Below the pieces are notes generated by a model. The model saw nothing but the letters and a program-made list of their open reading frames with translations, did not search any database and had not been told where the DNA came from. A stretch of 56,770 bases of DNA, the filler included, from Perkinsus olseni (lineage: Eukaryota), in the NCBI GenBank assembly GCA_013115125.1. It is 2 parts of 2 records of this genome, joined end to end, with 100 filler letters (N's around TTAATTAATTAA, not from the genome) between each part and the next. Parts side by side here need not be neighbours in the genome. Positions count along the whole stretch, not along the records: positions 1 to 28,356 come from JABANN010000449.1; 1 more part is not named here. One strand, written 5' to 3'. Below, piece by piece: positions 1,009 to 28,456 of the stretch (within the stretch, counting starts at the first letter, position 1; each line of letters starts with the position of its first letter). The position numbers and the translations under genes were made by a program.

Positions 1009-2779
1009 CTACTGTGTCCTGGAAAAGGATATCCCCATAACAATGAGGGACCCTACAAGGGTCGCCAAGAGGATGAGGTCAGCTGAGGGGGAGTCATTGG
1101 AAGCCCAGTCGAGTAGGGTCCCGAACTGCTCACCTCCAGAAGTTCCATCTCGTCGCTCACGGTCGGGTTGATGCGCTACTGGACACTTCCCGGTGGGTGT
1201 AGTGGCTGCTGCCGGGCATCCTTGGTGGCTTCCGCTGGCGGAATTACCAGTCGAGTGCCGCCTGAGTACAAAAACTTGTGCCATATTGCCAAGACCAGTG
1301 CCCCGTTTCGGGGCTCTAGCCTCACCCAACGTCTGCGGAGCCGATGATCATTCTGTCGTTGAAGTCAGGCTCGATGTCCCGGGTGAGCCAGAAGGGAGGG
1401 TTGTAGGGAGGGACCATCTGACGAGGCTTGAAGACATTCGAGAGTCGCTCAATACCACACCTTCGATTCATCCCCTTGCAGACATGGCACCGGCTCCAGA
1501 CCGAGGGACACCTTATAGGCCCCTACAGCCGTACGGACGAGGGCCTTGATGAGAAGAGGGTGTTCTAGGAAGGACTCTGAGCACCCGTGGACGGCGTCAG
1601 GAAGGCCTGATGAGCGGCAGGTTTCATGCGGGCTCGAGTGTGGATGTCATCGTGCACTCGTCATCACTCACCGGGTTCTCCTCGTGACTGGAGGCCCTTG
1701 TTTATCCGCTGTACGTATGAGGACCCGGTAGTGCCATTGGATGCCGACAGTACCATAACTTCCTCAACTCCCTCCCCCGATAGCAGCTCAGAGACGTGCC
1801 GATACACTCGACGTTGGGACTGAAGGCATGACTAACTGTGGCGACGACCAGCGATGACGATTCGAGTTCACCTGCGGCGAGCGGACAGTCTGAACGTAGA
1901 GGCCCTCACAGGACTTCACGCCGGCGGAGCGAAGCACTTGCTCGTTTATTCGACGATGAAGATGCTGCCAGAAATGCTCACAACCATCACCATGCGACAG
2001 CACCAGCGCAGCCGTCCGAGATGGAACTGAGGGTGCCAAGTCCGACACAAAAGGAGACAGCCTTCCTACTACCTCTCATCTCCGGCACCATCTTTTTGGC
2101 CTGTTCCGCTATGATCTCGGGTAGCACATCATGTTGATGGTCCAGAGGCGTGCACATGGTGACCGGCAGCCTGCCAACGTACCGAGGGATCTTTGGGTCC
2201 TGAACACGACTACTCGCTACTCGAGAAGTTTGAGATGTCTTACTTGGTCAGGATGATAGCGGATGTTGAGAGCGTTGGGTAGGTCCCTCTCCGAGTGAGA
2301 GCTCACTGATGTGAAGATCGGAACCGCAATGACCCTATCCATGCCTGAAGGACCCTCAATAATACACAAACAGGCCATTGAAGAATTTACCCCGAGGACC
2401 CGAAGATCATTCCGACAGCGATATGATGGTCTCAGAAAATCCGATCAATTTTCACTAGCAAGAGCCTCGTACTCCGCACGATTCCTACGAGCCCTCACAT
2501 GACCTCCTCCTCCTCCTCCTCCGTCTACCTTCAGCCTCCAACCTGTCCATCGTCGTCTTGATGTCTGGCCCAGCGAACTCCATATGGCACCATCTCAACG
2601 CCTCGAACGTACCACCGTAACTGTTATCGACCATACCACTCCTTTCGTAACTCATCTCTCTACCCTTCTTCCCTCAGCTCCTTTTCTATCGCCGGCAGCA
2701 TCTCCTCATGTGCCTTGTTCCAGGGTGGCATCGGTGCTCCGTGATCGATAAAGATGAGCCCCACCTTCGGCGCGTCCAT
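1009..2779 (-). CDS. CbiX/SirB-family (class II) chelatase-like protein, paralogue A; multi-exon; C-terminal Cys-Pro motifs and predicted transmembrane tail
   Basis: Manual splicing gives MDAPKVGLIFIDHGAPMPPWNKAHEEML...RWCHMEFAGPDIKTTMDRLEAEG...DRVIAVPIFTSVSSHSERDLPNAL, matching the CbiX pattern (HG, ME..P.I, VVVP.F...H..DIP). A second domain starts RTAALVLSHGDG. Last exon (1009-1261) is in frame after a GT-AG intron at 1262-1325. Confidence 0.75.
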
Positions 2780-2904
2780 GGCGACGAGACAGTTTGCACT
2801 GAACGGTCACCTCCCACCCTCCTCCATCCCCACACTACAAAACCCAACCCTTATGATATCAGGAACGAGGAAACATAATTGAAAAAATCAGGGCTGTCTT
2901 AAAC

Positions 2905-5000
2905 TTATGCCCCCACAGTTTTGTTGTTCGCACCAACCGTCTTCGGCCCCTCCAAGGCGGCCCTGAGAAGATCAACTCCATCCCTTCCGCCGCCGCGAAC
3001 GAATATTACTTCCGATCAGTAGATGGCCTTATGATCGTCCTGTCGTTGTGTCCGGGCGCAGCATCTCTGGTGAGCCAGAACGGAGGGTTGTACGGCGGCA
3101 CCGACTACGATACGCACACCATCGATCTCCCCAACCCCGGCAGTAGTCTACCTTCTTCTCTTCCCCTTGGAGCTCCGGCACCTCCTTCCTTCCAGTGCTC
3201 ACTTGGCACGCATGCACGGCACAGTCGACCAAGGCCGACACCATCAGAGGGCTCGACAGGAATAGAGTTTGACATCCGACAACCCCCGAGGGCAAACCTG
3301 AACAAAATATCTTCACGCCTAGGTTGACCGTAGGCTACCACGGATCAAAGATACCATCAATTATACCAATATCGCTGGAAGCACCATCAGCGACCACCCC
3401 CTGCCACTACCCTCTTCGTTCCTTTTGGCAAGGCCGTCAGCAGCCCGGGTCACGAACGTCGCCCCGGACGTACCGTTGAAGGCGGTCAGGACCAGCAGAG
3501 TGTCCACTCCCACCATAGCCCCCTTGCAATAGTCTCTCAACCTTCTCTGTGCCTGAGGAACGCACAGTCGAGAACACCAACAGCCAGCAGCAGCAGCAGC
3601 AGAACTCGCTGCACTACTACCGCGGGAGACCGGAGGGTCTGCACATAGACACCTTCACACGACTTTATACCAGTTCTTTCAATAACAAGGTCATTAATGT
3701 CTCTATGGAGATGCTGCCAGAAATGCTCACATCCGTCGCCATGGGAGAGGACGACTGCCGCGGTGCGGGTCGGGTCTGATAAGCACCACTGACTGTCACC
3801 AACGTGCCCGTCTCACACCCACGGAGTCCGACAGTTCCCTCCACAATTGAAGAGTTTATCAGAAAATCTAGCTTGCATGCCAGTACGTTAGCCCAACAGA
3901 ATCACCATTGTTCATGTAAGAAATAATCTCAGGCTTGCCCGTAGGAAAAAGCTAGAAAATAACAGGGCAGGCTGCCAGACTCACCCCTCCCGTCAGTCAT
4001 CATGTCCACAGCCTGCTGAGCGATAACCTTGGGGAGGAGGCCGTACTGGTGGTCCAAGGGCGTGCACAGCGTCACCGGAATGTGGCCGGTGTAGCGGACC
4101 ATCTCTGAATCCTGAAAGGAGTGGTATGGAGCTGTCAATAGTTACAAGACTACCTGATCTGGATGGAATCTGATATTCAAAATGTTAGGAAGATCCCTCT
4201 CCGAATGGGAGCTGACGGATATGAATACTGGTATCGCGATAACTCTGGATACTCCTGAACACTGGACGATAGCCGGACAGGGGAGAAAGCAGGAGCCCTC
4301 GCGTACCTCACCGATCGCCCTAACGCCAATACAATGGGCTTCCAATAAGTGTGAAATAATTAGAGAAGAAAACGAGATATGGTACGATAACTTCTATCAA
4401 GCACAATTCTCCGCGAGTACAACAATACAGAAGCACAAAAGTCAGAATTTTTCGCGGAGTGGGATGTTTCTAGTGATGGGGCATGCACAAAGAGGTAGCA
4501 GTGTACTGAGGACACTAACGATTATGAACACTGCATCAATCACCGTCTGAGCGCAGAAATAATCGAAAAACCATTTTCACCGATGATGAGTGACAGCTGT
4601 TCTACGAGACACACCATTCGAAAGCTTTCTGATGATCTACTATTGAGTCGGGTCTCGGTCTGATATTCAACCTTCGGACAAAGGGTTAGCCGTGGAAAAT
4701 CTTCTCTGACCGGACTATATATATTGAACGCTACCTTCGGCTTCTAGCTTGTTCATGGTTTCGGCGACTGACGGTTGGACGAACTCCATGTGACACCATC
4801 GCACGGCATAAAACATTGTGGCGAGCCTGATGGGAGGAGGACACGATTCGGTGGAGGTGTGGTATTAGGTTTTACTACCCTCGGCGTTCTAGCTCTTCTT
4901 CCACTTTCGGCAGCAAATCCTCATGGCTCTTGTTCCACACAGGTGACGGCGATCCATGATCAATCAGGATAAGACCGATGCGATGGGGAGAAGAAGCCAT
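2905..5000 (-). CDS. CbiX/SirB-family chelatase-like protein, paralogue B; multi-exon; short soluble C-terminus
   Basis: MASSPHRIGLILIDHGSPSPVWNKSHEDLL...RWCHMEFVQPSVAETMNKLEAEG...RVIAIPVFISVSSHSERDLPNIL...RTAAVVLSHGDGCEHFWQHLHR...PPYNPPFWLTRD. Exons are colinear with paralogue A and intron positions are shared, including the last phase-2 intron. Confidence 0.75.
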
Positions 5001-5158
5001 GAGCTGACGGGAGATATAAAAAACCTTTAGTCAACCTATTCCGTATCTTCCACTATTCAACCTCAAGATACCACTCAAGATCCATTGTCTCTATTACACA
5101 GTGTACCATGTCGTTAGCAGCAGCAGCAGATTCCCGTTCGTTATCGAATTTAATAGCC

Positions 5159-5587
5159 TCAATCAGACACTTGCTTCTTCTTCGTCAAATTAACGCTCTC
5201 CCTCTTCAACACGTGCAGCAGCGTCTGGCTCGACTCGAGGATCTTCATATACGCCGCCTCGGTCTCCTGGATCGTCTTGTCGTACTCATTCCGAGCCTGG
5301 GTCTTGCGAACGAGCGACTCTGAGGATAATAGTCATTGCAGAGCGCAGCGTGGACGTACCGTTTATCCTCTGCAGACGGTCAGTGAGCACCGCCAGCTCC
5401 TTCTGTATCTTCCCCTTGTCTTCTTCTTCCTGAACAAAACCCGCAGAGGTTCGATCCCTCGCACCGCCACCATTCCAAGCACCTTCAGTATCTGTCGATT
5501 GAGCTCCTCACGCTTCTCTCTCAAATCCTCAATACACTTGACCAGCTCGCTGTTGTAATTCTGAAGAGTCGAACCCTGACTGGACAT
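5159..5587 (-). CDS. SSNA1: SSNA1/NA14/DIP13 microtubule-associated coiled-coil protein, 3 exons
   Basis: [47 protein letters not shown]...[29 protein letters not shown]; introns at 5430-5482 and ~5320-5359. Confidence 0.93.
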
Positions 5588-5701: not shown

Positions 5702-7345
5702 TCATCTCTTCGTCACCATCACCAAGAAATCTTCAACTCCCGGAGTCTCTCGGATCTTGTCAAGGAGGCCATCTGGCAAGCAGGCTGTGATACGGTCCGG
5801 AAGGGCAGGAGAGAGACCGCAAAGTCGACCAAGCAAGGAGAGGGTGCTCGATAAAAGGGGAATATCCTGACCATGGACGACGCAGGCTCGGAGGCAGAGG
5901 TTAGCCAGCAGAGAGATCGACGCGGTGTCGAGGGAGGCCTCGTCCGGGTGGAGCACGGACGCCCAATCGAAAGCGGCAGCATTGGTGGTGATGATGCTGA
6001 CGATGGAGGGATTATGAATGTGATGGTGGAAGGCAGTCAGGACGGTTAGATGCAGGGGAACGATATCTCTGCCAAGGCATCGCAACCCACAATACTGTAC
6101 GCATGCACACTCCAACCTGACCTCCATCGTATCTTGCACTATTCGACCCCAAGATACCAAATCCCTGCATTCGCTCCACGCCAGCAAGGCTGCCGCTCTC
6201 AATTCGTCGCATGTATCTTTGCCTCTTATGATAGACTCGAGTCGACCTCGGAAGCTCCCACCCAGTCCGCTGCGCCACACCGTCAGACAACTAAACTTGC
6301 ATGCCAAACTCCCACCATCGAAACAGCGGCCGAGGACTTCCTTCAACCTTAACTTCATCCCACTATCGGCATCTCGCCAGTCCAATCGCCACAGAAGATA
6401 CGACAAGCACTCCAAATCGAGCTTCGCTCCGCCTTTTTTCCACCGTTCCAATTCATGCAGGAGCGTATCGCTGCAGCGCTTCTCATGAAGACAGAGGGCC
6501 AGCAGCAGACAGGATAACCACCCTGCTTGGCCGAGGCTGACAACGGCCATGTGGTAGGCCCGCGCCGATCGGGCAGGGTTGAACGGAAGGTCAGCGAGGA
6601 AAGATACCATCCAAATGCAGACCAATGCGCGCGCTCGCCACGACGCTAGCTCGGGGGAGGAGGGCGCGGCTTCCACTTCGGATATTGAGTCGAAGAGAGC
6701 GAAGAAAGATGTATCATCGAGCCAGTGAGGGTCAACAGCCTCGCCTTTTCCCCATAATTTTATCAGAAAGTACGATAGGCCATGCAAGTGCTCGATCTGC
6801 TGATCCACGCTGTTCTGTGCAGAGTACGACAACCATTCTCGCAATATCTGATAATCGAATAATTTCGTGGCGAGTGACGGTTCTCACAGACCTTATCGAG
6901 TGGTCGCTGAGCCTTTTTGACCTCCAGCAGTGGATCGCTCGTTCGTAATTCGTCCGAGTAGGAGACTTCCCGTCCGAGGTCTGATGAGAGCGGGGCTACT
7001 ACTATCAAAATAGCTCTGGAGCATTCACTCGTATGTGCCACGGATCGACCTAAGATTCCACTGTCACCTGTGACGACCATCCAAAGATACGCTCGACCCC
7101 TGCTGTCAATGACGTCCTTGGAAAGATTCTCCACGGTGAGAGGCGTCTCACGACAGCAGTACCGCTCCACCTGTGCATCTAAGCGAAGCAATCATCAAAC
7201 GCACCATCACCACGCGGAACCCACCATGAGTATTCCGACCAGCGAGGTCGACGCAGCCGAAAAGATTGCTCCTTTCCTTGGCCAGCTCAAGCTCAAGTTC
7301 GTTCTCCTGTAGCTTCAGCGTGATCGCATCAAGCTTCTTCTCCAT
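5702..7345 (-). CDS. Hypothetical Leu/Cys-rich helical protein, probably multi-exon with an N-terminal coiled coil
   Basis: 380-aa ORF 5702-6844 plus upstream same-strand ORFs (MEKKLDAITLKLQENELELELAKER; 6763-7191). No family recognised and exon linkage is uncertain. Confidence 0.5.
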
Positions 7346-9051: not shown

Positions 9052-9671
9052 GTAGAGAGCAGACCGGAGGGGAATCCCCTCGGGGGATGCTGGACTGAGA
9101 GCAGGCTCTTGTGAGTGCAAGGGATGTTATAGGATGGACGAGGTGCGTGAATCCATAAAACATTGAGAACGTACCACACGCTCACCTCGAAGCTGCAGGT
9201 TGGGTGTCCATCGTGCAGTTGCTGCCCTCTGCTCTCACGGCGTGCTCCACATGAGCGGCGGCAGTCGTGCCATGATGGGGGATACTTTTTGTCCGATGCG
9301 TACGTGATGACGACTGTGCCGTGGCTGATCGTAAACTGTCGCAAACTCGAGCATGCACGCTAGTATTGGTTCCATTTTATAATTTCTCCGAGTTTTGCGG
9401 GGGCATCGCTGAGACTTTAACGAAGGTACCTTACCAACGATCCATCTCAGGACTTAGCCCGGATGTTCGCTCGGACTGCAGAATTGGTTTGACGGAAGAG
9501 CAATAGGTGTCGATGAGGGTGAGTCGTCGCAGCCAGGCGGATTCGGTTGTGTCGCTGTTGGTCAACAACGGGGGAAGCTAAGACACCAGGGGCGCACGCT
9601 TTCGACGGTGACGCCGAGTAGGGAGTTCCGCTGCTCATCGGTGTGACTGCAGAAGTGTTACTTTCCCCGGT

Positions 9672-10469
9672 ATGACTATCATTCCTCAATGGTCCTATGA
9701 TGATCAGTCTGCCTGGCCTGGTGTGGGTAAGAAGGGTAAATCTCAATCGCCGATATCTATTGAGACCGCTGCTGTCGACCAGTCGGTTATCTTAGAAGAT
9801 CTTCAAATCAATTATGGTCCAATTGATGATGCTGGTCTGAGTATCTCAAATCATGGTATTAATGTTTTAGTCGACGATGGTCAGAAGAGACACAATATTG
9901 GTAACGTCCGTATGTATGAAGAAGACACCTTCGTTTTGGATCATTTCCACGCTCATTGGGGTTTGACCGACGAGTCAGGCAGCGAGCATCTACTCGAAGG
10001 TATGGCCTATCCGATGGAAGTTCACTTTGTTCATTACAACGAGAAATACGGAAGTGTCGGGGATGCTAAGGGGAAGGCTGGTGGCCTGGCTGTCTTGGGC
10101 GTCTTCTTTGAGATCGGTGACGCCAACCCTGAGATTGAGAAAATTCTCGAAGCCGTGAAGACCGGTAGCGACACTGTTGGCTCCATCGACTTGTACGGTT
10201 TAATCCCCGAGGATGCGGGTACAAAGTTCTTTGGTTATGATGGTTCCCTCACCACACCTACCTGTGATGAGAATCTTCTTTGGCATGTGGCGAAGACGAC
10301 AATGACAATGAGTGAGGATCAGATGAAGATGCTCAGGTCTGCTGCTGGCCCCGATGGAGATGTCATCGCCCCCAACTATAGAGATGCTCAACCATTGAAT
10401 GGGCGCAAGATTTTTATAACCGATGGCTTGAAGGAGGAGTTGAGCATCAGCCGCAATCGTTTGCCGTGA
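9672..10469 (+). CDS. Alpha-carbonic anhydrase copy 1 (lacks signal peptide and Cys-rich tail; may be a truncated pseudogene)
   Basis: QSPI, HFHAHWG, GSEH, EVHFVH, GLAVLG, GSLTTPTC, NYR..QPLNGR; intronless; near-identical core to copies 3/4 but different termini. Confidence 0.85.
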   Translation: MTIIPQWSYDDQSAWPGVGKKGKSQSPISIETAAVDQSVILEDLQINYGPIDDAGLSISNHGINVLVDDGQKRHNIGNVRMYEEDTFVLDHFHAHWGLTDESGSEHLLEGMAYPMEVHFVHYNEKYGSVGDAKGKAGGLAVLGVFFEIGDANPEIEKILEAVKTGSDTVGSIDLYGLIPEDAGTKFFGYDGSLTTPTCDENLLWHVAKTTMTMSEDQMKMLRSAAGPDGDVIAPNYRDAQPLNGRKIFITDGLKEELSISRNRLP

Positions 10470-10693: not shown

Positions 10694-11290
10694 CTACTCC
10701 CTTCGCTTTCTTGGCCTCAGCATTGAATTTCCGTCGCGCGGCACTACGCACCTTACGGTGATGAACCGTTGAGGGAGCGTCAGTGACGCTGCGTCACTGA
10801 CGCTGATATGACGGTGATATCGCCGCTGGGCCCTTTTGAACTTAGCCTTCAGCTTCCCTAGCCGAGATGTCCACCAGGTGGCACCTGCCGTGGCGGGAGC
10901 TTCAAGCGTAAACGCATGCACCAGAGCGCTGAGAGCCTCGGTGATGTCGTAGGGCGACAGGTTCCGCAAGAGCTTAGCAGCTTCCCGCTTCACCGCCGCG
11001 ACATCTGTGAGCCCATGGGCAAGGCGAGGCTTCACCGGGGTGTTACCCGCAACCTCTATCCTGATCAGGCGATGATCAGAGCCCAGCAGATCATCCTCTA
11101 GGTACCAGACTGGCGCCAGCTCATCAGCCGGACCGTGGAGGAATGTAGCATCGATCCATGAACTGTGTCGCTCGGACTCGAAGGAAGGAAGAGACAGCTC
11201 GTCGTTCAGGATCGTGATCTGGCGCTCGGTGCAGCATTGTACCGAATAGTCACCACGAGACCACTGCAGACGATACCGGTTGGCGGCGGT
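10694..11290 (-). mobile_element. Non-LTR retrotransposon (LINE) ORF2 fragment: end of APE endonuclease plus linker
   Basis: Minus-strand translation ITILNDELSLPSFESERHSSWIDATF...LLGSDHRLIRIEV (S.ID and SDH motifs), followed by WWTSRLGKLKAKFKRAQRRY. Confidence 0.7.
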
Positions 11291-11409
11291 GACCGTAGAG
11301 CCCCAGGACCTTCACAAAATTTAAAGATCTACGCGCGGTCCGCACGGTGCGGAATACATATGCCCGTTTCAGATTCGTACCTCCAACTTTTCTCGCCACA
11401 GCGACTTCC

Positions 11410-12336: not shown

Positions 12337-13397
12337 CTATGGTGCAGTGAAGATGAAATCACAGACCAAGGGTTTGAGGACGAAATCATCACATGTCTCC
12401 AACTGGGTAGGTTGGAAGCAATAACCATCATCGTTATGATAAAGACCATAACATACTCCATTGCCTTTACAGTAAGAGCCGTACTTAGAATCACCACAGG
12501 ATGACAGACCATCACATACACGATGACAATAAAGGTTCACTTCCTCCTTCATGCCTTCGGTTATATAAACCTTACGACCGTTCAATGGCTGAAGATGCCT
12601 ATAGTTGGGAGCGATGATTTCTCCTTCGGGGCCAACAAAAGCTCTGATGGTCTTCATCTGCTCTTCACTCAGTGTCATTATCGTCCTCGCTACATGCTGA
12701 AGAAGATTTTCATCACATGTACTGTAGGCGCCGATAGGGAACCATCATAACCAAAGAACTTCGTACTCATGTCTTTGGGGATAAGACCGTACAAGTCGAT
12801 GGAATCAACAGTATCGCTACCGTTCTTGATGGCTGCCAAAATTTTGTCAATCTCAGGATTGGCCTCACCAAGTTCAAACAAGACCGTGATGAAAACCAGG
12901 CCGCCGATTTTCCCCTGAGCATCAGGGAAAGGTGTTGCGTATTTCGCGTTGTTATGAACCAAATGAAATCCAGAGGATAGGCCTTACCTGCGAGTCGATG
13001 CTCGCTGCCTGAAGTATCGTTCAAACCCCAATGTGCGTGGAATTGATCGAAGATGAAGGTGTCGTTTTCGAAACCACGAACGTTGGTAACACTGTACTGC
13101 TTCTGACCACCACCGAGCAACACATCAAAACCATACTTAGAGATACTCAAACCAGCATGATCCACTGCACCATAATTGATTTGAAGATCTTTCAGGATAA
13201 CCGACTGATCAATGGCGGCATTCTCAATGGATATCGGTTATTGATGTTTACCCGTAGCACACAAGCCAGGCCACTGGCCTGAGGCCACTCTGCCTGGCCT
13301 GAGGCCAGGCAGACTGATCATCATAGGAATAGTCGAAGCCAGTAGCAAGTTGTTTAACCTGATACAGACCGATGGAGGCAACGGTGATGAGTTTCAT
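12337..13397 (-). pseudogene. Alpha-carbonic anhydrase copy 2 with Cys-rich tail; frameshifted
   Basis: Starts MKLITVASIGLYQ; palindromic insertion at ~13266-13310 gives an early stop; frameshifts near 12965 and 12720; pieces in ORFs 12767-13165, 12690-12962 and 12337-12678. Confidence 0.85.
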
Positions 13398-14423
13398 AGA
13401 TGGACGGGATACAGCTGGGGAGTGCAAACTCGGAATAATTTCGAACTACAGGGCGCCCAACTATGAAGGACGAAATCTGCATACACTGTGATCTGGGAGA
13501 TGTATGGTGGAGATCTATTCGATAGTAATTGTAACAAATTCAACGCTGTCATCAAGGAAGCGCCGATTTTTCCCTTAATGGCTGAAGACTCTGTCAACAC
13601 ACGAAACGACGTCACTTGTTACCAACTATCTTTTGCAAGACGGACGCGTTGTCGGAACTATAGCTGACGCCCCGTTGCCGTTGAGTCACACTTGAGCCAT
13701 GATGGCTCGAGTGGAAAAACTGTCATTAGGGATGGCTCAGCCATCCCTGATGACAGTTTTTTCCGTGTACCGCCAGCTGCACTATGGACGAGATAAGCCG
13801 AATACTTGAGCGAGTGGGCCTCAGCGAATAGATGGCACGCATGCACGTCGATCCTAGTGGGATACTCGCCGCGAGGACGAGATGACTGGGCACCGCACTG
13901 TTGTGCACTGCAGCTTAGTACAACGTAAATAATTGAGACGAGGCTCACTGGGTGGTGAAACCGAACTGGGGAGGGGTGTTGGGTGGACGCATGACCCGTA
14001 GCATGATCTGTAGCGTGATGTAGAATGCATGCTCAAATGCACGCGAGTGCAAGGCCCAAAATGATACCGGGTATAAGTGGGAAGCAAAGCTGTCGTCTAC
14101 TCCTCCGTGAGGGCACACATGCTGTCTGAGAAAGTTCATTGACCATCCAACATAACTTGTGTTATAGGTAATGTGTCACGTGTATGTTCCCACGCATAAG
14201 CCCCCGAAACCCGGTAGTCTGCTCAACAGCTGCAAAGCTTCTTCTCATTTCCTCGATTGCATAGTCCGACCCACACCTAACTATTTTCGGTGTCTACCAC
14301 TACCGTTGAAGCGGGTTCAGCTGCAATTCAGTTCACTCAGGCGCGTTAAGCGAGGACTAGGGCCAGCTTCGACATTCGTGATTTAAACGGGGCTAACCGT
14401 GCCGAAAACTTGCACGGTCACGA

Positions 14424-14680
14424 TTACGGTAATCGGATTACCGTCGAAACCCAAATTGGAGAAAGCTCAGGCTTCACGGTAGAGTCTTCACCAGAGGAAA
14501 GATCCCTTATAAAGTCTGGAAGACTTTCCCAGAAAGTGGCACTTCTGAAGTGCGCCATCCGTTGAGTTTGGAGTTTGAGAATGAGTTTGTCGTTCCGAGT
14601 TTGAGTCTCAAACTCTGACCTGCCGTAGCTTGACAATTTGGGATGCCTCAGTCGGACGGATTTTGGAGTCTCAGCCACTG
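14424..14680 (-). mobile_element. Possible LINE reverse-transcriptase C-terminal remnant within a degraded repeat-rich tract
   Basis: TQTRNDKLILKLQTQRMAHFRSATFWESLPDFIR resembles the TR...F...W..LP tail of CR1/L2-type ORF2. Confidence 0.35.
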
Positions 14681-16970
14681 CAGATGTCCTGGAGGCGATA
14701 GAAAATCGGCAAGGCCCTCAATTTCCGTGAAAGAGTGGGGTCCTATGACTCTCGGTCCAGTAGAGAAGCCGTACGCTCCCTTGCCTTACCCTCGCCTGAG
14801 CGGTGATTTTCACACAGCACCTTCTCGGACAGGATGATGCTCAACTTTTCTGACAAAGATTGTCGTGTAAGTCAATCCGTGAGGCTGGGGACGGCGCCAT
14901 GCAGAATAATCAACAGAGGGGAGTGTGAAAACCCCGTTCAGGTTTCAATATTGAGATTGTGCGTATGAGCTTAGCGAGCAATTTACGTTGCTGAACACTC
15001 CATACTGGATGAAATAGGCCTCTCATCGGCTAGTCGATCCGTAGAGGTATCGCTCCGTACTGAGGTTAATCCCGCAGGGTTTCATCGACGGTGAAACCGG
15101 AACGAAAGGGGACAATATTTGTGTGCTAGCAACATTGGCTAGAGCGCTAGCCAGGATGGATTCACCTTCTCGTAATACTGATAGTTTTCAGGGTGTAATA
15201 TCCTAGTATTGTTGCGTACTACCGTGGTATATCTTCCTCGACGAAAGGGAGGCGGTCCTGCTAAACGCGTGAACTCAAGCCACCTTTCGTTTGTCAGTTT
15301 GTCATCATGTTTTCTTGGTAGCGATTTGAGCGACCCTGCTGCCTCTGCGCGAGTCGATCCATTTGCCTTCACGACACTACGGTCATAGCCGCAGGACTCC
15401 CGGTGGCTGGACTGCGCCTCGCCATAGAGGACGTCGTGACTAGCCCCGAGTCCCCTCTCTCTCCTTCTAGTATCCCAATCTGAGCAGCGGCTCTGCAGCC
15501 TTTGCGTGAGCCGATCAATCCCACCCTACCCACTAACCGAGACTGCGGGTGAGCCTGGACCTGCCCCAATATCCGGGTGTAGGTCCTCGCTGGGCTGGCC
15601 GCTACACGCGCAGGGGTTGTGTACCCGCTGTGCGCAGCCAAACGCAGGAACTGTTGGCGCAAGGCCACAGAAAGGGCATTCACCCCTTGTCGCCCTCACC
15701 GCCTGCAGGTCCGTCGCGGCCACCGACTCGACTCCCAGTCCCCGTAGTTAGAGGTTTCACGTGTTGTTCCGAGAATGTCAGACCAGTACGTCGACTCGAC
15801 GTCTCACTAGTGCCGCGTGACGTTTGGCGAGCGAGCTGATTTCCGGTTTTCGGGTGGGCCCTACGGTTAGGGCCCTACCCTTGGAGTATGGAGTTGTCAG
15901 CTGAAGTCACGTTGCGCCGGTTTGGACGAAAAGCTCATGGACGTGGCACGTCCGACGTGCCTTCGTCCAAGGTGAGGGACTAGAGGTACGCTAAGAGGTT
16001 TGGAACATCGCGTGCTGCTCAGGTTCGGCATCAGTAACTCATTTTGAAGCAGGAAGCAACTGACTATTCGCCCACATCTAAGTCATCGGTCGCATCTTCA
16101 CTGCCGATATCTACGAAGTCACCTCTCCCTGAGCGAACCCAGTGGAATTGCCCCATGGTGGAACCCGAGGGAGCCGTCGACTTATCTCGGGGTCACTGGC
16201 CCACCCATGTCTCCTACTAGGCCCCTAGTCTATCCGCGTATAGATGCTCCGCCTTCATGTTTGAGTGCCTGAGAGCGATGGCCATGCCTCCCTTCACCAT
16301 TTGATGCCGATCTATGCCACGGATTCTACAGTGTTGATAACGAAATCCGCGACGACCGGTAGGGCCTACCGGGTAGGCTGCTGGCTGCCATCTGGCGGCA
16401 GCGGCGCGTAGATTCACATAACAACTGAGAAATCCTCAGTGAGAATATCAAGGTGCAAGAGCTGGTTCACGAGCTATTAACCACCCAAACGCCTCGTGAG
16501 AGCCTACCATTTGGTCTGTTGAAGCTCTCTGAATGTCGACAACCAGTCAATAAACAATCTGCCAGTCAACTGCCAGTAGACAACTCGTGACCCGAGAGTC
16601 CCGTGGACGGATCTCCGCGCCACGGAAGAGCTGTCTGTTTATCACAGGCATTACGTTTGCGTCCCTTATTCATACGATCTCGAGGCACTCAGTCCGTCGG
16701 TAGAGTTTGCGGGAGCGATCCAGACAACCCAGTGTTCCCACCTTTTCAGCCATCGTGAGACCGCGTTGTTGTATTTCATGGTGGAGCGCAGGACAATCGG
16801 TAGACGGTCATCAGGCCACCCGGCTCCACGACCGATTTCTCAATAGCTAGGGCACCAACGCATGAGCAAAACCGAGCGGGTTTCGACCTTGGGAAGCTTC
16901 TTCGAGTGTGAGCTGGAGTCTTTCGAATTGTGCAGCTTCTACAGGCTTCAGATAGCATCCCACTTTCAAA

Positions 16971-18076
16971 ATGATCAGCTTTCTCTCTACTTGCTTGCTA
17001 GTGGCTCAGCTTCTGGTAACTACAAGCGCATACTACATTGGCAAGTTCGTTCACGATGGGCACGACTTCACCATGGCCTATGAGGTGAACAAAGAGGGTT
17101 AAGTCAGATTGTCGTTCAAGGTTCCTGGTCAGCCAGCATTCACCAGCACGCCGTACCCCCTGCATGAACCTTCGAATACTTACACCGTCGACTTCACAGG
17201 CTCGTTCGAAGGGGTTCGCCACTGGTATGAGCGTATCCGTGGCCTTTACCAAGCAGCTCATATCAAGGATGATGACTTGACCGTTCTCAGTCTCGTGAAC
17301 AGTGATATCCTCTTCGCTAAGTTCGAAGGCCGAGAGCTCAAGTTCACCAGGCAACCTGACAGCTCGCCCTCAGACGCTCAGTACATTGGCGAGTACGTTC
17401 ACGTTGGGGACGACTTCATCATGTCCTACGCGCTGAGAATTGATGGTAAAGTCAAATTCTCGTTCAAGGTGCCTGGCCAACCAACGTTCACCAGCGTGTC
17501 GCACTCCCTGCACGGACCTTCGCATGTTTACACAGTCGACTTCACGGGCTCGTTCGAAGGGGTTCGCTACTGGTATAAGCGTATCCGTTGCCTTCACCAA
17601 TAAGTCCACATCAAGGATAATGACTTGACCGCTCTCAGTTTCGTGAACGGTTATATTCTCTTCGCCAAGTTCGAAGGCCAAGAGCTCAAGTTTACCAGAC
17701 GGTCTGATCGCGTGCCCTTTGACGCTCAGTATATTGGAAGATTCGTTTACGACGGCGACGACTTCACTATGGCCTCGAGCTGGACGACGAGGGCGGAGCC
17801 AAATTCTCGTGAGAGGTGCCTGACAAGCCAGCGTTCACCAGCATTGCATATCCCGTCACTGGAGGTCCGAATGCTTACGCCATCGACTTCACAGGCTCGT
17901 TCGAAGGGGTTCGCCACTGGTATAAACGTATCCGCGGCATTCACCAAGGAGTTGATATCAAGGACGGTGACTTGACCTCTCTTATTTTGACCAATGGTGG
18001 TATCGTCGCCACGTTCGACGGCCTAGAGTTCAGGTTCACCCGACGCCCCTACCCCCGGGCAAATCTGCGGAAGTGA
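16971..18076 (+). pseudogene. Decayed intronless secreted protein with three tandem 116-aa (348-bp) repeats
   Basis: Signal-like MISFLSTCLLVAQLLVTTSA; repeat starts YIG at 17034, 17382, 17730; shared motif Y..DFTGSFEGVR.WY.RIR; in-frame TAA at 17100 and 17601, frameshift and stop at ~17775-17810. Confidence 0.8.
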
Positions 18077-20287
18077 GTAACCTCCGGTCGATGGACTTCG
18101 CTACTGAGGGCACGAGCCGTGCCGTCGATGACGAGGAACCACGATGATGATGCTCGATCTTTTCTCAGCTGTAGAGCTATCGTTGGACATACCGTTCTAA
18201 CACTGTCACTGCCATTGTTTCATCTATCTATTTCAGTCATATATGGACCGCCGGGCACCCGCTGGTCTGATCTCGTCTTTTCAAGAACTGAAAAGACTCA
18301 ATTTGGGCGCTGCAGCAAGCAGTGATCACCTGCCGTGCAAATTGTGATGTTCTATGAAGTATCCGGAACGCCCTGCGATAATGCACATGTATCAGGATGG
18401 GAATGGTTCCAATATGGACGGCCTCAGGGAACAGTTTACTCAGGACTCTCACGAGCCTTGCATTAACCCTTAGGGGAGCGAAGTTTTTTGAGGCGAGCTT
18501 GTTACTGAATCAGCAACTTCACAGTCATGATTGATCACCAGACTGATACGAAGCTTGCAGGTTCAATCTAACTCAGTTTTCATCCCGCCAAACTGCACTT
18601 GCGTTTCATTGAGTTTCCTGGTCATCGCGATGCGAAGTTGAGCTGCGCCGCCGGTGTGTAAGCGGGAGATGAGGACGTAGGATGACATAGATAAGGACTA
18701 TAGTATGTCATACACATCTTTTACTAAAATCCTCACCGGTCGACGGACCCAACCTGCGAGCTCCGCGAAGTGGGACCGCGAGGTAACCCCTCCTCAGTCA
18801 CACGCTTCCGAGGGCTTGGGGCAACGCTGACGACGAAGAACCAAACCTGATCAGAAGAATCTCCCGGGTTGTTCGAGAGTCATGAAATAAAAGGCGGGAT
18901 CGGAGTTCCTGAAAGTTTCCGCTAGTGGGTCGTGTGGAGAAAGTTGGAACCACATTCATTATCAAGTTAGTCGGGTGGCACGGAGTTGTCCTATTCGACT
19001 GCTGAGCAGTCACTGCTCCTATCTGTTCCGTTATATCGCCAGAATAACGGATATATGGATGGACTGGCAGTTGTCGAGTGGGAGTTGGGTGAGGACCCCT
19101 CCCACACTTTGAGGTTTCTAGGGTTTCTCAACAAAGATAACAACCTACGCATGGCTACCGAACGCAGTGAGCACAGCAGCGGACAGCAGTGCTCGCGAAG
19201 AGTTCTTCTTTCCTGGGATTAGACGGTCGTCCGATCCATATCATCGGGATTGGACGATCATCTAATATTGGCCAAATGACAGGTTTACACGTACTTGCGG
19301 CGAGAAGAGCGTCACAACAGGGATATCAGCGTTCGTCCCGACTTGCAAATGCGGTGGTACTTGCGGTTTGCACAGATTGAGAATACAGTCAGAGTCGCTC
19401 ATCGACGTTTTCACAGGAATTCATCAGCGACAATGAACGTAGAAGACCGCAGCACCGGGTGGACAGAACGGAGATTGCACCAGCTGGCACCTGAAAGAGA
19501 TTTTGAAGACCACTACTGTGTAGAATTGGCCCGACAGCTGGCGCGCTTTATGACGAGAGACTTGGCGATCGTATCATGTACAACACGATATATATGGAGT
19601 TCCTATCAATGAACGAAGAGAACGGGATAACGATAGCGGGTGTGATACTACAGGAACTGGTGGTTTATTCACTCAACAAGATTCGGAAGAAGATTGCGCT
19701 ACGCCTACCGCGCGCATCGAATGCAGCCGCAATGCACATTACAAGATACTTCCCCTTATGAGACACTCGCCCTCCGTGTAAATATTTGAGTGCGGACTGA
19801 GAGTCTAAACGAAGCCGGTAGATGATACCCCGACGAGGGGAACAGCAATCTCGAAGCTGAACGGCGCGCTGCCTAGATTTTTAAGATTTGCAATTCCAGC
19901 CACGTTGAACTACTCTCTGCTGCCCAGACGACAGATAAAATGCAGCGCATTACGAAGATCCGGAACGGGTCCTGGCGTTCGAAGCACTGAGGATATAATG
20001 CAGGGAGCATGGAGCATTAAATTACAGGTCCCTCAGTTAGTCGAGGGGACCCACCCCCGCTGTCGACCTGAAACGGCGTGCTAATCGATTAGTCACGCAC
20101 AGTAAAGATTCGTCTAGCTTATTTGTGGATTGTAGTAGCTTATTCGTCTAGCTGAAAAGGCTAGCTCAGATGAAATTGCAAATTGCCATTTTGTGAGTCC
20201 GGAAGTGGTATGGTATGATTCAGTAAGTAGTGAATAGTAAGGCGTGCAGGCTAGATTTTGTCCTTGGCAGCTGTTTTCCCTCTCCTC

Positions 20288-21313
20288 ATGAAGTGCCTCA
20301 GCGTTGCCTCCATCGGTCTGCATCAGATCGCATTGGCTGCTACTGGTTCTGATTGGTCCTATGATGATCAGTCTGCCTGGCCTGGTATGTGTGCCGAGGG
20401 TAAATCTCAATCGCCGATATCCATTGAGACCGCTGCTGTCGACCAGTCGGTTATCTTAAAAGATCTTCAAATCAATTATGGTCCAATTGATGATGCTGGT
20501 CTGAGTATCTCGAATTATGGTATTGGCGTGTCAGTCGAAGGTGAGCAGAAGGAATACAATATTGGTAACGTCCGTATGTATGAAGAAGACACCTTCGTTT
20601 TGGATCATTTCCACGCTCATTGGGGTTTGACCGACGAGTCAGGCAGCGAGCATCTACTCGAAGGTATGGCCCATCCGATGGAAGTTCACTTTGTTCATTA
20701 CAACGAGAAATACGGAAGTGTCGGGGATGATAAGGGGAAGGCTGGTGGCCTGGCTGTCTTGGGCGTCTTCTTTGAGATTGGTGACGCCAACCCTGAGATT
20801 GAGAAGATTCTCGAAGCCGTGAAGACCGGTAGCGACACTTTTGGCTCCATCGACTTGTACGGTTTAATCCCGGAGGATGCGGGTACAAAGTTCTTTGGTT
20901 ATGATGGTTCCCTCACCACACCTACCTGTGATGAGAATCTTCTTTGGCATGTGGCGAAGACGACAATGACAATGAGTGAGGATCAGATGAAGATGCTCAG
21001 GTCTGCTGTTGGCCCCGATGGAGATGTCATCGCCCCCAACTATAGAGATGCTCAACCATTGAACGGTCGTAAGGTTTATATAACCGAAGGCTTGAAGGAG
21101 GAGGTGAACCTTTATTGTCATCGTGTATGTGATGGTCTGTCATCCTGTGGTGATTCTAAGTACGGCTCTTACTGTAAAGGCAATGGAGTATGTTATGGTC
21201 TTTATCATAAGGATGATGGTTATTGCTTCCAACCTACTGAGTCCGACACTTGTGATGATTCCGTGCTTGAACCCGTTATGTGCTCTCCCTATACGACCGG
21301 GTTCACTATTTAA
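20288..21313 (+). CDS. Secreted alpha-carbonic anhydrase copy 3 with C-terminal 8-Cys module
   Basis: Signal-like MKCLSVASIGLHQIALA; Zn-ligand His motifs HFHAHWG and EVHFVH; tail YCHRVCDGLSSCGDSKYGSYCKGNGVCYGLYHKDDGYCFQPTESDTCDDSVLEPVMC; intronless. Confidence 0.93.
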   Translation: MKCLSVASIGLHQIALAATGSDWSYDDQSAWPGMCAEGKSQSPISIETAAVDQSVILKDLQINYGPIDDAGLSISNYGIGVSVEGEQKEYNIGNVRMYEEDTFVLDHFHAHWGLTDESGSEHLLEGMAHPMEVHFVHYNEKYGSVGDDKGKAGGLAVLGVFFEIGDANPEIEKILEAVKTGSDTFGSIDLYGLIPEDAGTKFFGYDGSLTTPTCDENLLWHVAKTTMTMSEDQMKMLRSAVGPDGDVIAPNYRDAQPLNGRKVYITEGLKEEVNLYCHRVCDGLSSCGDSKYGSYCKGNGVCYGLYHKDDGYCFQPTESDTCDDSVLEPVMCSPYTTGFTI

Positions 21314-23139
21314 AATTTGACTTCTGAACAACTTGAGTCTTGATTAGTTGCTATCGATCTCGTAGCTTTTTTTTCAACTCAAATTGACATGAAATCGTAA
21401 TCTCATCTTTTAGTAAGTGGTAATTCGTTGTCGAGTTGCGAGTTGTCTTAGCAACTATCGCGTAGACTCTAACCTGAGTCATTGCAGTAGATATGTGCAT
21501 TTGGCGGAAAGTGATTCGGATAGGGGTATGGTAGCGATCGGGTAGAAGCTTCGTTGGCGAGATTTTCAATGGCTCTGCGCAGCGAACTCTCAGGGCGATG
21601 CGAGGAGGGATGGTGGTTCAGCCACCGTGGTCGACTAGCAGCTTGCTAGTAGAAAGACGAATTATAGAGAACTCTTATAACCCGACGTTCGGTATTGTCG
21701 AGCGTCGCGACTCCGCATTATTTGCTGTCAGTCTCGTCTGCGGAAGGCTATCAGAATATTGTATATCTAAGACGAACGGGTCGTTTCATGCCCATGGACT
21801 GTCTCGTTTCTCAAAGCGAATCACGACAGTTTCGTCTTGGTTGATATAAGTCGTTATTACCGCAGCAGTGTAACTACCTCTCACTGCAGAAGCTCGCCCG
21901 TGAGGGCAGGGGTTCTTGTTGAAGACAGTGAGGACTCGAAAGACCAGCAGTACGCGAGCCGAATCAACCTAAGACAATCCACAACCCAGAAGTTGTATTT
22001 AACAGGATGAATGCGATGTAACGGTCACCTGCCTTAGAAACGCTGACGCTTTTTGACGCCAAGGGAAGATCGAACCTGAGGTTCTTGCCATTGAGGTCGT
22101 AGCGAATAAAGAGGTATCCTCGACACGCTATGAGAGGGCAGAGAGGATAACATCGTTACAATGATTGGGGAAACGACCAGCACAATGAAAACACCGGCTG
22201 AGGTGTGGCCGGCCGTGGCAATCTCAAGGAGGGTTGAAGGTCGATCTCTGCAGGTTAGCTTTTCTCGGAGCTCATAAGCTAGCCATCGCCGGCTCCCATC
22301 GATTACTTTAGTTAACAGTCATGCACTGGCCTTAATCATCTTCGACATCCTCAGTACATCGTGTGAGAGGCATTGCTCTCGATAGGTAGAAGGCAAGTCT
22401 ATAACGGCGTCAAGAGCGTGATACAAATTGGAGTTGATTCAGACCATACTGTAAAGTAAAGTCCGCAACGGGAGCTGGTAATGTTGCGCGCTTGGTTGTT
22501 CTACACTGTGGTCGCTGCATTGAGAGGGCTATACGTGAGCGGAAGCTGCGCATCCACCCCCATTCACGATTGAATTCACTCCATCGCAGCCACTCCCCTG
22601 GCTAACGAATGGCCTAGGTTCTGTACAGTCCGCTTCGCGGAGCCTTGGAAGACGAGTCTAGAAAACCTCTACCGGTCTATTAGCTCAATCCACCCGAGCA
22701 GATGGCCCTCCAGCGGGTAACTATTCATGTATGCCAGCTCAGGCACAGCCGTTGCGCAGCGATCTGGTCATAGACCGTGTTTTGAAAGAGAAAATCGCAG
22801 ATTTTCAATCGCTGATTTGGTGTAGTGGGGTGTCATCCACTACTAGCTCCGGAAGTTCTTCGTCCCGCTGAAACTCTCCATTGATCCACTGCTGGTTCGT
22901 CCGAATTCCATCCTGCGGATGGAAGCAAGGCGCTCTGAAAAATATGGCATATCTGCGAGGAATCACCGACCAGATAATTGTGTGTTGGTGGTTCAAGTGA
23001 CGGGACATATCGCACCACACAAAAGGCTAGTAGCCGAACATCATTACAGCCTGCCATTCGTAATTCGATTATCCGCAGTTACTCGGTCTATCTCCTAATT
23101 CTTAGGGTGTGCTCTTCAGTTGCTTCTCCTTCTTCTTCA

Positions 23140-24165
23140 ATGAAGTGCCTCACCGTTGCCTCCATCGGTCTGTATCAGATCGCATTGGCTGCTACTGGTT
23201 CTGATTGGTCCTATGATGATCAGTCTGCCTGGCCTGGTATGTGTGCCGAGGGTAAATCTCAATCGCCGATATCCATTGAGACCGCTGCTGTCGACCAGTC
23301 GGTTATCTTAGAAGATCTTCAAATTAATTATGGTCCAATTGATGATGCTGGTCTGAGTATCTCAAATTATGGTATTGGCGTGTCAGTCGAAGGTGAGCAG
23401 AAGAAATACAATATTGGTAACGTCCGTATGTATGAAGAAGACACCTTCGTTTTGGATCATTTCCACGCTCATTGGGGATTGACCGACGAGTCAGGCAGCG
23501 AGCATCTACTCGAAGGTATGGCCTATCCGATGGAAGTTCACTTTGTTCATTACAACGAGAAATACGGAAGTGTCGGGGATGCTAAGGGGAAGGCTGGTGG
23601 CCTGGCTGTCTTGGGCGTCTTCTTTGAGATTGGTGAGTTTAACCCCGAGGTTGAGAAGATTCACGAAGCCATCATGGCGGGCAGCGACGCTGTTGATTCC
23701 GTCGACTTGTACGGTTTAATCCCGGAGGATGCGGGTACAAAGTTCTTTGGTTATGAGGGTTCCCTCACCACACCTACCTGCGATGAAAATCTTCTTTGGC
23801 ATGTGGCGAAGACGACAATGACAATGAGTGAGGATCAGATGGAGATGCTCAGGTCTGCTGTTGGCCCCGATGGAGATGTCATCGCCCCCAACTATAGAGA
23901 TGCTCAACCATTGAACGGTCGTAAGGTTTATATAAGCGAAGGCTTGAAGGAGGAGGTGAACCTTTATTGTCATCGTGTATGTGATGGTCTGTCATCCTGT
24001 GGTGATTCTAAGTACGGCTCTTACTGTAAAGGCAATGGAGTATGTTATGGTCTTTATCATAAGGATGATGGTTATTGCTTCCAACCTACTGAGTCCGACA
24101 CTTGTGATGATTCCGTGCTCGAACCCGTTATGTGCTCTCCCTACACGACCGGGTTCACTATTTAA
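23140..24165 (+). CDS. Secreted alpha-carbonic anhydrase copy 4 with C-terminal 8-Cys module
   Basis: Same length and nearly identical to copy 3; ATG at 23140. Confidence 0.93.
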   Translation: MKCLTVASIGLYQIALAATGSDWSYDDQSAWPGMCAEGKSQSPISIETAAVDQSVILEDLQINYGPIDDAGLSISNYGIGVSVEGEQKKYNIGNVRMYEEDTFVLDHFHAHWGLTDESGSEHLLEGMAYPMEVHFVHYNEKYGSVGDAKGKAGGLAVLGVFFEIGEFNPEVEKIHEAIMAGSDAVDSVDLYGLIPEDAGTKFFGYEGSLTTPTCDENLLWHVAKTTMTMSEDQMEMLRSAVGPDGDVIAPNYRDAQPLNGRKVYISEGLKEEVNLYCHRVCDGLSSCGDSKYGSYCKGNGVCYGLYHKDDGYCFQPTESDTCDDSVLEPVMCSPYTTGFTI

Positions 24166-27614: not shown

Positions 27615-28005
27615 TGGCAGCCCGCATATCAAAGTCAGAGTTGGGGAAGGGCAAACAAAGATGCCACTCGTTAGCCCAAGGCCCGGATGACTCGTCAATG
27701 CCCCTGTGGCTGAGTTGCAGTACCGTCAGTGAACGATGCTGCTAGAATGGGATTCGCCCCCCCCCCATCAACCCATAGGTTATACGACGATTCGAGCCAA
27801 CAGCCATTAGACGGTTGAACCCCCGCTCAGTTGGGAGCAGCAAGAATTTGGGGATACCAAGTCCGCCATTTACTAGCTGCCTGAGATTCCCTCTATCATA
27901 TGTTAGAATGACTATTCATTCATTACCGGACGAACTTTTCGAGAGCGTCGCACCGCACGATTCTACGCAATACTCAATAAATGAATCAGATTGGACAAAC
28001 GAGGT

Positions 28006-28287
28006 CATCTACTCGAAGGTATGGCCTATCCGATGGAAGTTCACTTTGTTCATTACAACGAGAGATACGGAAGTGTCGGGGATGCTAAGAGGAAGGCTGG
28101 TGGCCTGGCTGTCTTGGGCGTCTTCTTTGAGATTGGTGACGCCAACCCTGAGGTTGAGAAGATTCTCGAAGCCGTGAAGACCGGCAGCGACACTGTTGAT
28201 TCCATCGACTTGTACGGTTTAATCCCCGAGGATGCGGGTACAAAGTTCTTCGGTTATGATGGTTCCCTCACCACACCTACCTGTGAA
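28006..28287 (+). pseudogene. Internal fragment of alpha-carbonic anhydrase (copy 5)
   Basis: HLLEGMAYPMEVHFVH...GSLTTPTCE; homology begins and ends abruptly just before the assembly gap. Confidence 0.8.
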
Positions 28288-28356
28288 ACCTCTGAGTGTG
28301 GGGAGGGGGAGTGGGGCGTGCGAGCACCGGAACCTGAGGCAAGCGCAGTTCCGTGA

Positions 28357-28456
28357 NNNNNNNNNNNNNNNNNNNNNNNNNNNNNNNNNNNNNNNNNNNN
28401 TTAATTAATTAANNNNNNNNNNNNNNNNNNNNNNNNNNNNNNNNNNNNNNNNNNNN
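28357..28456. other. Assembly gap with artificial six-frame-stop linker
   Basis: 44 N + TTAATTAATTAA + 44 N. Confidence 0.97.

Follow-up and report, generated by a model that had tools for sequence, protein, structure and literature searches.

Tandem CbiX/SirB-type chelatase genes of Perkinsus olseni as candidate coproporphyrin ferrochelatases of a bacterial-type heme route

Class II chelatases of the CbiX/SirB type, such as SirB of Bacillus subtilis, CbiX-L and CfbA, consist of two alpha/beta domains with a His-Glu-His site in the N-domain, and they belong to the Pfam family PF01903. Plant SirB keeps the same N-domain His pair in a single domain, and the plastid SirB of plants and algae falls into PF01903 as well. 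CpfC of Listeria and Bacillus, the coproporphyrin ferrochelatase of the coproporphyrin-dependent (CPD) heme pathway, has the same overall fold. In the available parts of two reviews CPD is assigned to Gram-positive and some other bacteria, and eukaryotes are assigned to the protoporphyrin route (PMC10991733; PMC13564367). Both domains are also found in uncharacterised CbiX-like proteins that are exported by anaerobic bacteria, among them Bacteroidota and Planctomycetota. Here we analysed a stretch of 56,770 nucleotides from Perkinsus olseni (NCBI GenBank assembly GCA_013115125.1; positions 1 to 28,356 from JABANN010000449.1), called the window below, which carries two genes, A and B, at 1009-5000. 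Their proteins belong to the CbiX/SirB structural family, and we propose that, in place of CpfC/HemH, they are probably the coproporphyrin III ferrochelatase of a eukaryotic CPD heme pathway. Public databases already contain both proteins; the new result is their heme-pathway context. The features of the two genes, all on the minus strand, are:

2905..5000, minus: gene A, 9 exons, 345 aa, ATG at 5000 and stop ending at 2905; soluble two-domain CbiX/SirB-type chelatase
Exons of A, minus: 5000-4879, 4826-4735, 4254-4154, 4111-3985, 3775-3621, 3552-3411, 3297-3152, 3104-3010, 2962-2905
4953..4964, minus: IDHG motif of A with His15 (equivalent to the CfbA metal ligand His9)
4187..4213, minus: SSHSERDLP motif of A with His88 (equivalent to CfbA His75)
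3705..3743, minus: HGDGCEHFWQHLH in the second domain of A
1009..2779, minus: gene B, 10 exons, 392 aa, ATG at 2779 and stop ending at 1009; paralogue with a Cys-Pro tail and a predicted C-terminal membrane anchor
Exons of B, minus: 2779-2664, 2620-2529, 2344-2244, 2199-2073, 2026-1872, 1819-1672, 1606-1461, 1417-1326, 1261-1134, 1082-1009
2738..2749, minus: IDHG motif of B with His13
2277..2303, minus: SSHSERDLP motif of B with His86
1956..1994, minus: HGDGCEHFWQHLH in the second domain of B (His157, Cys161, His163, His167, His169)
1171..1221, minus: disordered tail of B with two Cys-Pro motifs, GCP at residue 341 and GKCPVAH at 352, in exon 9 of the spliced contigs
1021..1077, minus: C-terminal hydrophobic stretch of B, residues 371-389, with only 3 residues after it; probably a tail anchor

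A and B were read from the six-frame translation of the minus strand together with a splice-site listing, and lie in tandem with all exons inside 1009-5000. The two proteins are ~59% identical; over the first eight exons 190/329 positions are the same. Introns 1-7 are GT-AG introns at matching positions with identical phases (2,1,0,1,0,1,0), and intron 8 is in phase 2 in both genes. Spliced contigs came from four public runs of four studies; run X3 is recorded as RNA, and X1, X2 and X5 were guessed to be RNA. Splice joints were found for 15 of the 17 introns in each of the four runs, and the remaining two (A 4734-4255 and B 1133-1083) gave an exact fit to the record coordinates in run X3. The transcripts of A and B were present on separate contigs, that of A with a poly(A) end at 2859. 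Spliced contigs include exon 9 of B; exon 10 is included in those of runs X3 and X2. The matching intron phases and the RNA joints bear out the two spliced tandem paralogues of a preliminary description, which had been made from the sequence alone. An eight-exon reading of both genes was dropped, since homologues and RNA joints showed additional exons. A search with exon 5 detected no further copies in the P. olseni genome beyond A and B.

In-frame stops lie 10 codons (A) and 9 codons (B) upstream of the ATG, and the spliced contigs end at 5024-5034 (A) and at 2799 (B), contig ends being a weak hint only. Because of these stops and of contigs ending just before the start codons, we concluded that A and B have no N-terminal presequence, as the preliminary description had stated, and an upstream targeting exon was ruled out on the same grounds. 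Protein A is letter-for-letter the C-terminal 345 residues of the P. olseni record P0004, and B is identical to record P0058; the public names of these proteins are "hypothetical protein" or "sirohydrochlorin cobaltochelatase". In P0004, A is fused to a separate upstream gene, for which the RNA contigs give no support:

5159..5582, minus: separate upstream coiled-coil gene, which we take to be SSNA1/DIP13-like

Public models were found to be wrong in several places, and one from P. chesapeaki fuses A and B into a single protein of 632 aa.

With PF01903 over the full length B scored 40.8 bits and the record containing A 51.7 bits (cut-off 22), and exon 3 alone gave a CbiX match in both genes (E=0.0027 for A, E=0.008 for B). 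The solved structures nearest in sequence were CfbA, CbiX and SirB; identity to SirB was only 12-13%. Against the cut-off of 120 bits for the NCBIfam CfbA equivalog/PRK00923, B scored 47 bits and the Perkinsus and Amoebophrya proteins as a group 45-67 bits. The ferrochelatase family PF00762 gave 19.2 bits with B, over residues 19-97 only and below its cut-off of 27. The AlphaFold model of B (pLDDT 83, pTM 0.76, 85 sequences) shows two alpha/beta domains, a disordered region at 305-368 (pLDDT <50 over 314-368) and a last helix at 369-383. Its top fold match was SirB 5zt7 (Z 19.9, rmsd 3.1, 238 aligned), with which coproporphyrin ferrochelatase CpfC ties (Z 19.5, rmsd 2.7, 242 aligned; Z 18-19.5 overall), followed by human and yeast ferrochelatase (Z 17.6-18), CbiK (16.9) and FetB (15.9). 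Both the profile scores and the SirB-type fold are as the preliminary description had anticipated. A and B are not orthologues of CpfC by the PF00762 score, and their metal site is in the N-domain, whereas that of CpfC is in the C-domain; a His157 of the C-domain is conserved. They thus stand outside the CpfC/HemH family, though they probably work like CpfC. Nor are they plastid SirB, from which they differ by the lack of a presequence and by two domains rather than one.

The IDHG and SSHSERDLP motifs and the second-domain HG, which lies in HGDGCEHFWQHLH, are all kept in both A and B, in line with what had been seen in the preliminary description. His13, Glu53 and His86 of B align with His9, Glu42 and His75 of CfbA, which are described as metal ligands in the available part of PMC11568245. 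This N-domain His/Glu/His set was present in every eukaryote-type row of the alignment that covers it (16, 22 and 22 rows, respectively). The HG of the second domain is common to bacteria, while the Cys/His cluster around it is specific to the eukaryotic clade: C161, H163 and H167 were found in 23/23 and H169 in 22/23 eukaryote-type rows, and in the 62 bacterial rows they are not the commonest residues at those columns, apart from traces of Cys and His. Shared by the eukaryotic rows and lacking in the bacteria are R109-Y110, D123-H124, C161, H163, H167, H169, Q191-T192, R194 and the PYNPPFWLT end. In comparison with CfbA, its Arg12 is replaced by Pro in A and B (and in most bacterial relatives), and the Cys/His cluster and the PYNPPFWLT tail are additional.

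Genes of heme and siroheme synthesis were sought by an exon-wise profile search of the P. olseni assembly (39.9 Mb in 3353 contigs, fragmented and of completeness not established), to which all genome results below refer. PBGD was found at 5 places (best E 2.6e-16) and UroD with 6 exon hits on contig C2635 (best E 6e-12). Porphobilinogen deaminase appears in two copies on contig C2735 (1124-1793 and 6603-7081). No candidate for ferrochelatase (HemH) was detected with PF00762 or TIGR00109, and none for HemF with PF01218 (HemN/CgdH not searched). No match was obtained for siroheme-dependent nitrite/sulfite reductase (PF01077) or methylmalonyl-CoA mutase (PF01642), and the best match for uroporphyrinogen methyltransferase (PF00590) had only E 0.54; the searches covered neither precorrin-2 dehydrogenase nor MetH. 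In contrast to SirB, CbiX and CfbA, no convincing siroheme or B12 pathway partner was found around A and B by this search, which is insensitive for divergent genes split by introns. Candidate genes for the steps before and after coproporphyrin metallation were found on other contigs:

C3024, ~4190-5250, and C881, ~13100-16800: ChdC/HemQ-type genes (L075, L082, L084), two of them in tandem on C881
C41, ~2200-3900: HemY-family gene (L083)

The three ChdC-like genes were the matches above the cut-off of PF06778 (chlorite dismutase family), all of them intron-bearing, and they carry an N-terminal hydrophobic helix. Among the 14 PDB hits of a ChdC-like profile, 13 ChdC-type chains stood above the sole true chlorite dismutase. 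The ChdC-like model matched ChdC with Z 18.8-21.2 (best match Z 21.2, rmsd 2.3, 201 aligned), chlorite dismutases with 15.7-17.9 and DyP with about 14. Two residues, the YP-motif Tyr and the proximal His, were invariant in 16/16 rows. On the same profile a C. diphtheriae ChdC chain with the Y135A substitution scored 23.7 bits and the wild type 29.2 bits, so that the invariant Tyr appears to be at the catalytic position, at which chlorite dismutases are described as having Ile (PMC7611857, available part). Homologues of the ChdC-like proteins fell into the same tiers as those of the chelatase: three Perkinsus species, then homologues at 42-52%, then bacteria (Myxococcota). By profile and model, the three P. 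olseni genes look like coproheme decarboxylases.

For the HemY-like gene, the C-terminal exon gave three hits in all, the nearest being 3i6d (E 8.7e-12) and the next 2ivd (5.8e-6), which we take to be B. subtilis HemY and a Myxococcus protein. B. subtilis HemY is a coproporphyrinogen oxidase according to section 16 of PMC13564367. The gene is a candidate CgoX, its substrate not being readable from sequence. A second match of TIGR00562, on contig C560, turned out to be a general amine oxidase.

In the route that we propose, coproporphyrinogen III would be formed from uroporphyrinogen III by UroD and oxidized to coproporphyrin III by the HemY/CgoX-like enzyme of contig C41. A/B would then insert iron to give Fe-coproporphyrin III, from which the ChdC-like enzymes of contigs C3024 and C881 would make heme b. 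A and B would thus take the step of CpfC, preceded by a HemY/CgoX-like oxidase and followed by a ChdC-like decarboxylase. ChdC requires the iron complex and A/B are the only chelatase found, and they were therefore taken as the coproporphyrin ferrochelatase. The N-domain His/Glu/His would bind Fe2+, as it does in CfbA and SirB, while the porphyrin would sit in the interdomain cleft, flanked by the two Rossmann-like domains; the invariant Arg, His and Cys of the eukaryotic clade might serve to bind the propionates and deliver the iron. Metal insertion into oxidised porphyrins is within the reach of CbiX-type enzymes: uroporphyrin III is a substrate of CbiX-S and CfbA, and the single substitution S11T made CfbA active on coproporphyrin I (PMC11568245, available part). 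It follows from this shift that substrate choice is changeable in the CbiX-type family; the use of coproporphyrin III would be a prediction. The preliminary description had called the genes repurposed, which is supported, and had left the new role unnamed; it would be iron insertion in a CPD heme route, the substrate being probably not sirohydrochlorin. On balance we also lean towards a wider reading, in which the last steps of heme synthesis in Perkinsozoa and Amoebophrya follow a CPD route, so far described only in prokaryotes, built from separately acquired bacterial genes (HemY-like and ChdC-like) with a protein of the CbiX/SirB lineage as a new coproporphyrin ferrochelatase unrelated to HemH/CpfC, one of the Perkinsus copies being soluble and the other tail-anchored and heme-sensing.

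The evidence from Amoebophrya bears on this wider reading. A. ceratii was published without the last three heme enzymes (John et al., available part). In its supplementary proteome we found the chelatase as split models g1957+g1958 and ChdC as split models g5544+g5545; g1957.t1 is listed with a CbiX domain in the supplement of John et al. and corresponds to P0010. The A. ceratii ChdC shares the motifs of the P. olseni proteins; it begins with a hydrophobic stretch, and its tail contains a Cys-Pro. Among the listed A. ceratii proteome entries a HemH motif gave 0 matches, a single motif proving little. PF00762, PF01218 and PF06778 had 0 matches among the listed annotation rows, which cannot show absence, because ChdC is present in the proteome. 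In other alveolates, HemF and HemH are reported for MALV-I and Oxyrrhis in the available part of Holt et al. 2023 (PMC10624901), where the heme enzymes of Perkinsus and Syndiniales are called mitochondrial or cytosolic. In PMC13693241, HemB-E are the only heme enzymes named.

Several observations weigh against a CPD route with A/B as its ferrochelatase. The genome search that detected neither HemH nor HemF caught only one exon of A/B with PF01903 (E 0.279), and its best PF00590 match of E 0.54 was obtained in spite of a diphthine synthase being expected in the genome. HemH or HemF, if divergent, might thus have been missed; because most exons of A/B were missed, the absences of HemH and HemF, like those of the siroheme and B12 genes, are suggestive, not proven. 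P. marinus keeps a heterotrophic heme pathway according to the available part of PMC5115734, which does not list the enzymes. A. ceratii is also reported to lack the HemY step, which leaves its oxidase unaccounted for. The ChdC-like proteins scored 25-46 bits against NCBIfam equivalog cut-offs of 235-253, the HemY-like protein is far below its cut-off as well, and the HemY-like model on C41 lacks the middle exons. CfbA, both as wild type and as S11T, did not use coproporphyrin III, and known CpfC enzymes bind the metal in the C-terminal domain, unlike A/B (PMC11568245, available part). In the genomes that carry the bacterial sister family of A/B, ChdC was found in 0/30 and a full-length HemH in 1/30. 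What the data show directly is the gene structure, expression, fold, metal-site residues and clade of A and B, the presence of UroD, HemY-like and ChdC-like genes, and the co-occurrence of chelatase and ChdC in A. ceratii; from these we infer the true absence of HemH and HemF, the substrate and metal of A and B, the activity of the ChdC and HemY homologues, the localisation and the Cys-Pro role.

Homologues at 35-44% identity were found in P. marinus, P. chesapeaki, Amoebophrya sp. A120, A. ceratii and intronless environmental contigs; on the one environmental contig examined for it (L006), a neighbour gene matches a Perkinsozoa cluster at 0.95. The next tier was a bacterial CbiX-like family of ~300 aa, matched over both domains with a full-length profile (probability 100, E 2.2e-64). 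Two quick IQ-TREE runs with SH-aLRT support only were made. The 21 eukaryote-type rows formed one clade (SH-aLRT 100, stem 1.96), within which the split of A and B is older than that of P. chesapeaki and P. olseni. In the N-domain tree the eukaryotic clade grouped with the exported bacterial family (SH-aLRT 95), apart from the CfbA/CbiX rows; the rows P0151, P0152 and P0156, entered as canonical, in fact belong to the exported family, and P0189 was left out because its coverage was short. Row P0192, labelled algal-SirB-like from its presequence and motif, fell outside the clade on a long branch; it is the only such row, land-plant SirB not being in the tree. A and B are thus not nested with the CfbA/CbiX or algal-SirB-like rows, and the horizontal acquisition, intron gain and tandem duplication of the preliminary description are supported. 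The origin is probably bacterial on the sequence evidence, the donor group not being named by the quick trees. The acquisition is not peculiar to the P. olseni genome, as the preliminary description might suggest; it is old and common to Perkinsozoa and Amoebophrya. A viral origin was rejected, as 211 pattern matches in viral contigs left 0 confirmed.

Three near-identical metagenome contigs, L007, L008 and L009 (L008:109-1467), carry an Amoebophrya-type homologue that is full length only if TGA is read as Cys (2 sites) and TAG plus one base as a +1 step (2 sites). The TGA sites are at positions with Cys or similar in relatives, and the same breaks are found in all three contigs. This recoding looks to us Euplotes-style, in a syndinian-like sequence of 51% GC; the homologue may also be a pseudogene.

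The exported bacterial proteins differ from A and B in their signal-like leaders and in the lack of the eukaryotic signature residues. A hydrophobic leader was present in 55/62 bacterial rows and in 0/23 eukaryote-type rows, and structure neighbours among the exported proteins in the Atlas had TM 0.77-0.79. Their loci (L012-L071) often have FeoAB/DtxR, HmuY, ChaN, SusC/D+DUF4929 or flavodoxin genes beside them, with tandem copies in L041. Of 60 loci found, 25 were scanned and 75 neighbour proteins on the same strand picked. Iron/heme-uptake neighbours were seen at 15/25 loci: FeoA/FeoB/DtxR at 7, HmuY or ChaN at 3, and a TonB-dependent receptor at 6 (one shared with HmuY). None of the 75 neighbours was another cob/cbi enzyme, and a cobalamin riboswitch was found at 0/10 loci scanned. 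By this context the exported family is a candidate heme/iron-acquisition chelatase of anaerobes. That these relatives are themselves CPD chelatases was rejected from the lack of ChdC in the 30 carrier genomes. As they stand outside the CPD pathway, the role of A/B in it would have arisen after transfer, in agreement with the length of the stem and with the invariant residues that are new in the eukaryotes. The source would have been a CbiX-like protein exported by bacteria, which shed its signal peptide and took the place of HemH in an ancestor of Perkinsozoa and Amoebophrya, or was acquired by one and passed on.

The same bacterial context also suggests a role outside synthesis, in which A and B would bind host heme or remove its iron like their relatives, the ChdC-like genes would have a task in salvage or elsewhere, and an ordinary HemH would have escaped the search. 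Such a role would resemble that of chelatase-like proteins of the FetB/IhtB type, and FetB does share the fold; the bacterial leaders and the Feo/DtxR, HmuY/ChaN and TonB-receptor neighbours point in this direction, and the Cys-Pro motifs of B would fit heme binding in either case. The neighbourhood count has no background control, the loss of the leader, the new invariant residues and the stem of 1.96 argue for a changed function in the eukaryotes, and ChdC needs coproheme and hence iron insertion, with no other chelatase found. We consider this role unlikely.

A and B might instead replace ferrochelatase on another ring, either uroporphyrin III, with early iron insertion followed by UroD to coproheme, or protoporphyrin IX by way of an unrecognised oxidase. 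An early-iron uroporphyrin route has reportedly been described in work on S. aureus SirB. The failure to find HemH is consistent with either ring, the report of A. ceratii without HemY would be tolerable for early insertion, and CfbA and CbiX-S accept uroporphyrin III (PMC11568245, available part). Against this, the HemY-like gene of P. olseni is nearest the Bacillus enzyme, and ChdC makes a protoporphyrin route unnecessary, HemF not having been found either, so we regard another ring as quite improbable. A true sirohydrochlorin ferro- or cobaltochelatase, for siroheme or a cobalamin-related use, is very improbable: the database names, the nearest solved sequences, SirB as top fold match and the B12-dependent methionine synthase of A. 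ceratii speak for it, but no convincing methyltransferase, siroheme reductase or methylmalonyl-CoA mutase was found in the genome search, B is far below the CfbA cut-off, the bacterial loci showed neither cobalamin riboswitch nor cob/cbi enzyme, and corrinoids are not made by eukaryotes (PMC7242693, available part). We concluded that the database name "sirohydrochlorin cobaltochelatase" is unsupported by gene context.

Within the proposed CPD route A and B may have divided the work. The preliminary description placed the enzymes in the cytosol, which fits A; B is probably tail-anchored in a membrane, as judged from its hydrophobic end (Kyte-Doolittle value of 2.29 in a 19-residue window) and the last helix of the model. 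This end and the Cys-Pro motifs had been overlooked in the preliminary description. The Cys-Pro motifs resemble heme-regulatory motifs, and from sequence we would read them as such. Among 13 proteins checked, Cys-Pro was also present in the tails of three other homologues (P0019, P0069, P0209), and such motifs were lacking in A and the short environmental forms. Duplication before the split of P. chesapeaki and P. olseni would have given a soluble A and a membrane-tethered B with heme-responsive Cys-Pro motifs.

If the proposal is true, a branch of marine parasites is an exception to the protoporphyrin route in eukaryotes, and the "missing" last heme enzymes of Amoebophrya become named genes, filling a published gap. 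The CbiX/SirB side of the chelatase family would then have supplied a second, separate recruitment of iron insertion into a heme precursor, and a wrong database name would be corrected. A parasite heme route unlike that of the mollusc host would be of practical interest for shellfish-disease control. Among the papers listed, none was found that connects Perkinsus with CbiX, with chlorite dismutase or with ChdC, subscription papers being outside the scope, where relevant reviews may already name the genes. In the available parts of the literature, no Perkinsus HemH is named in work on Perkinsus ferrochelatase, and no transfer of CPD to eukaryotes is claimed.

Other features of the window are:

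9612-10469, 12337-13237, 20255-21313, 22978-24165 and 27985-28356: alpha-carbonic-anhydrase-like gene cluster, the tail being Cys-rich in some members; PF00194 match confirmed in the first member alone
10694-11311, minus: non-LTR retroelement-type endonuclease fragment (PF14529, E 5e-7)
5702-6883, minus: open frame of 393 codons, no Pfam match in the stretches scanned
16998-17975: repeated-module protein region, no Pfam match in the stretches scanned
28357-28456: N spacer joining contig C2734 to other sequence
37206-40964, plus: very large protein in long open frames, by eye presumably VPS13-like

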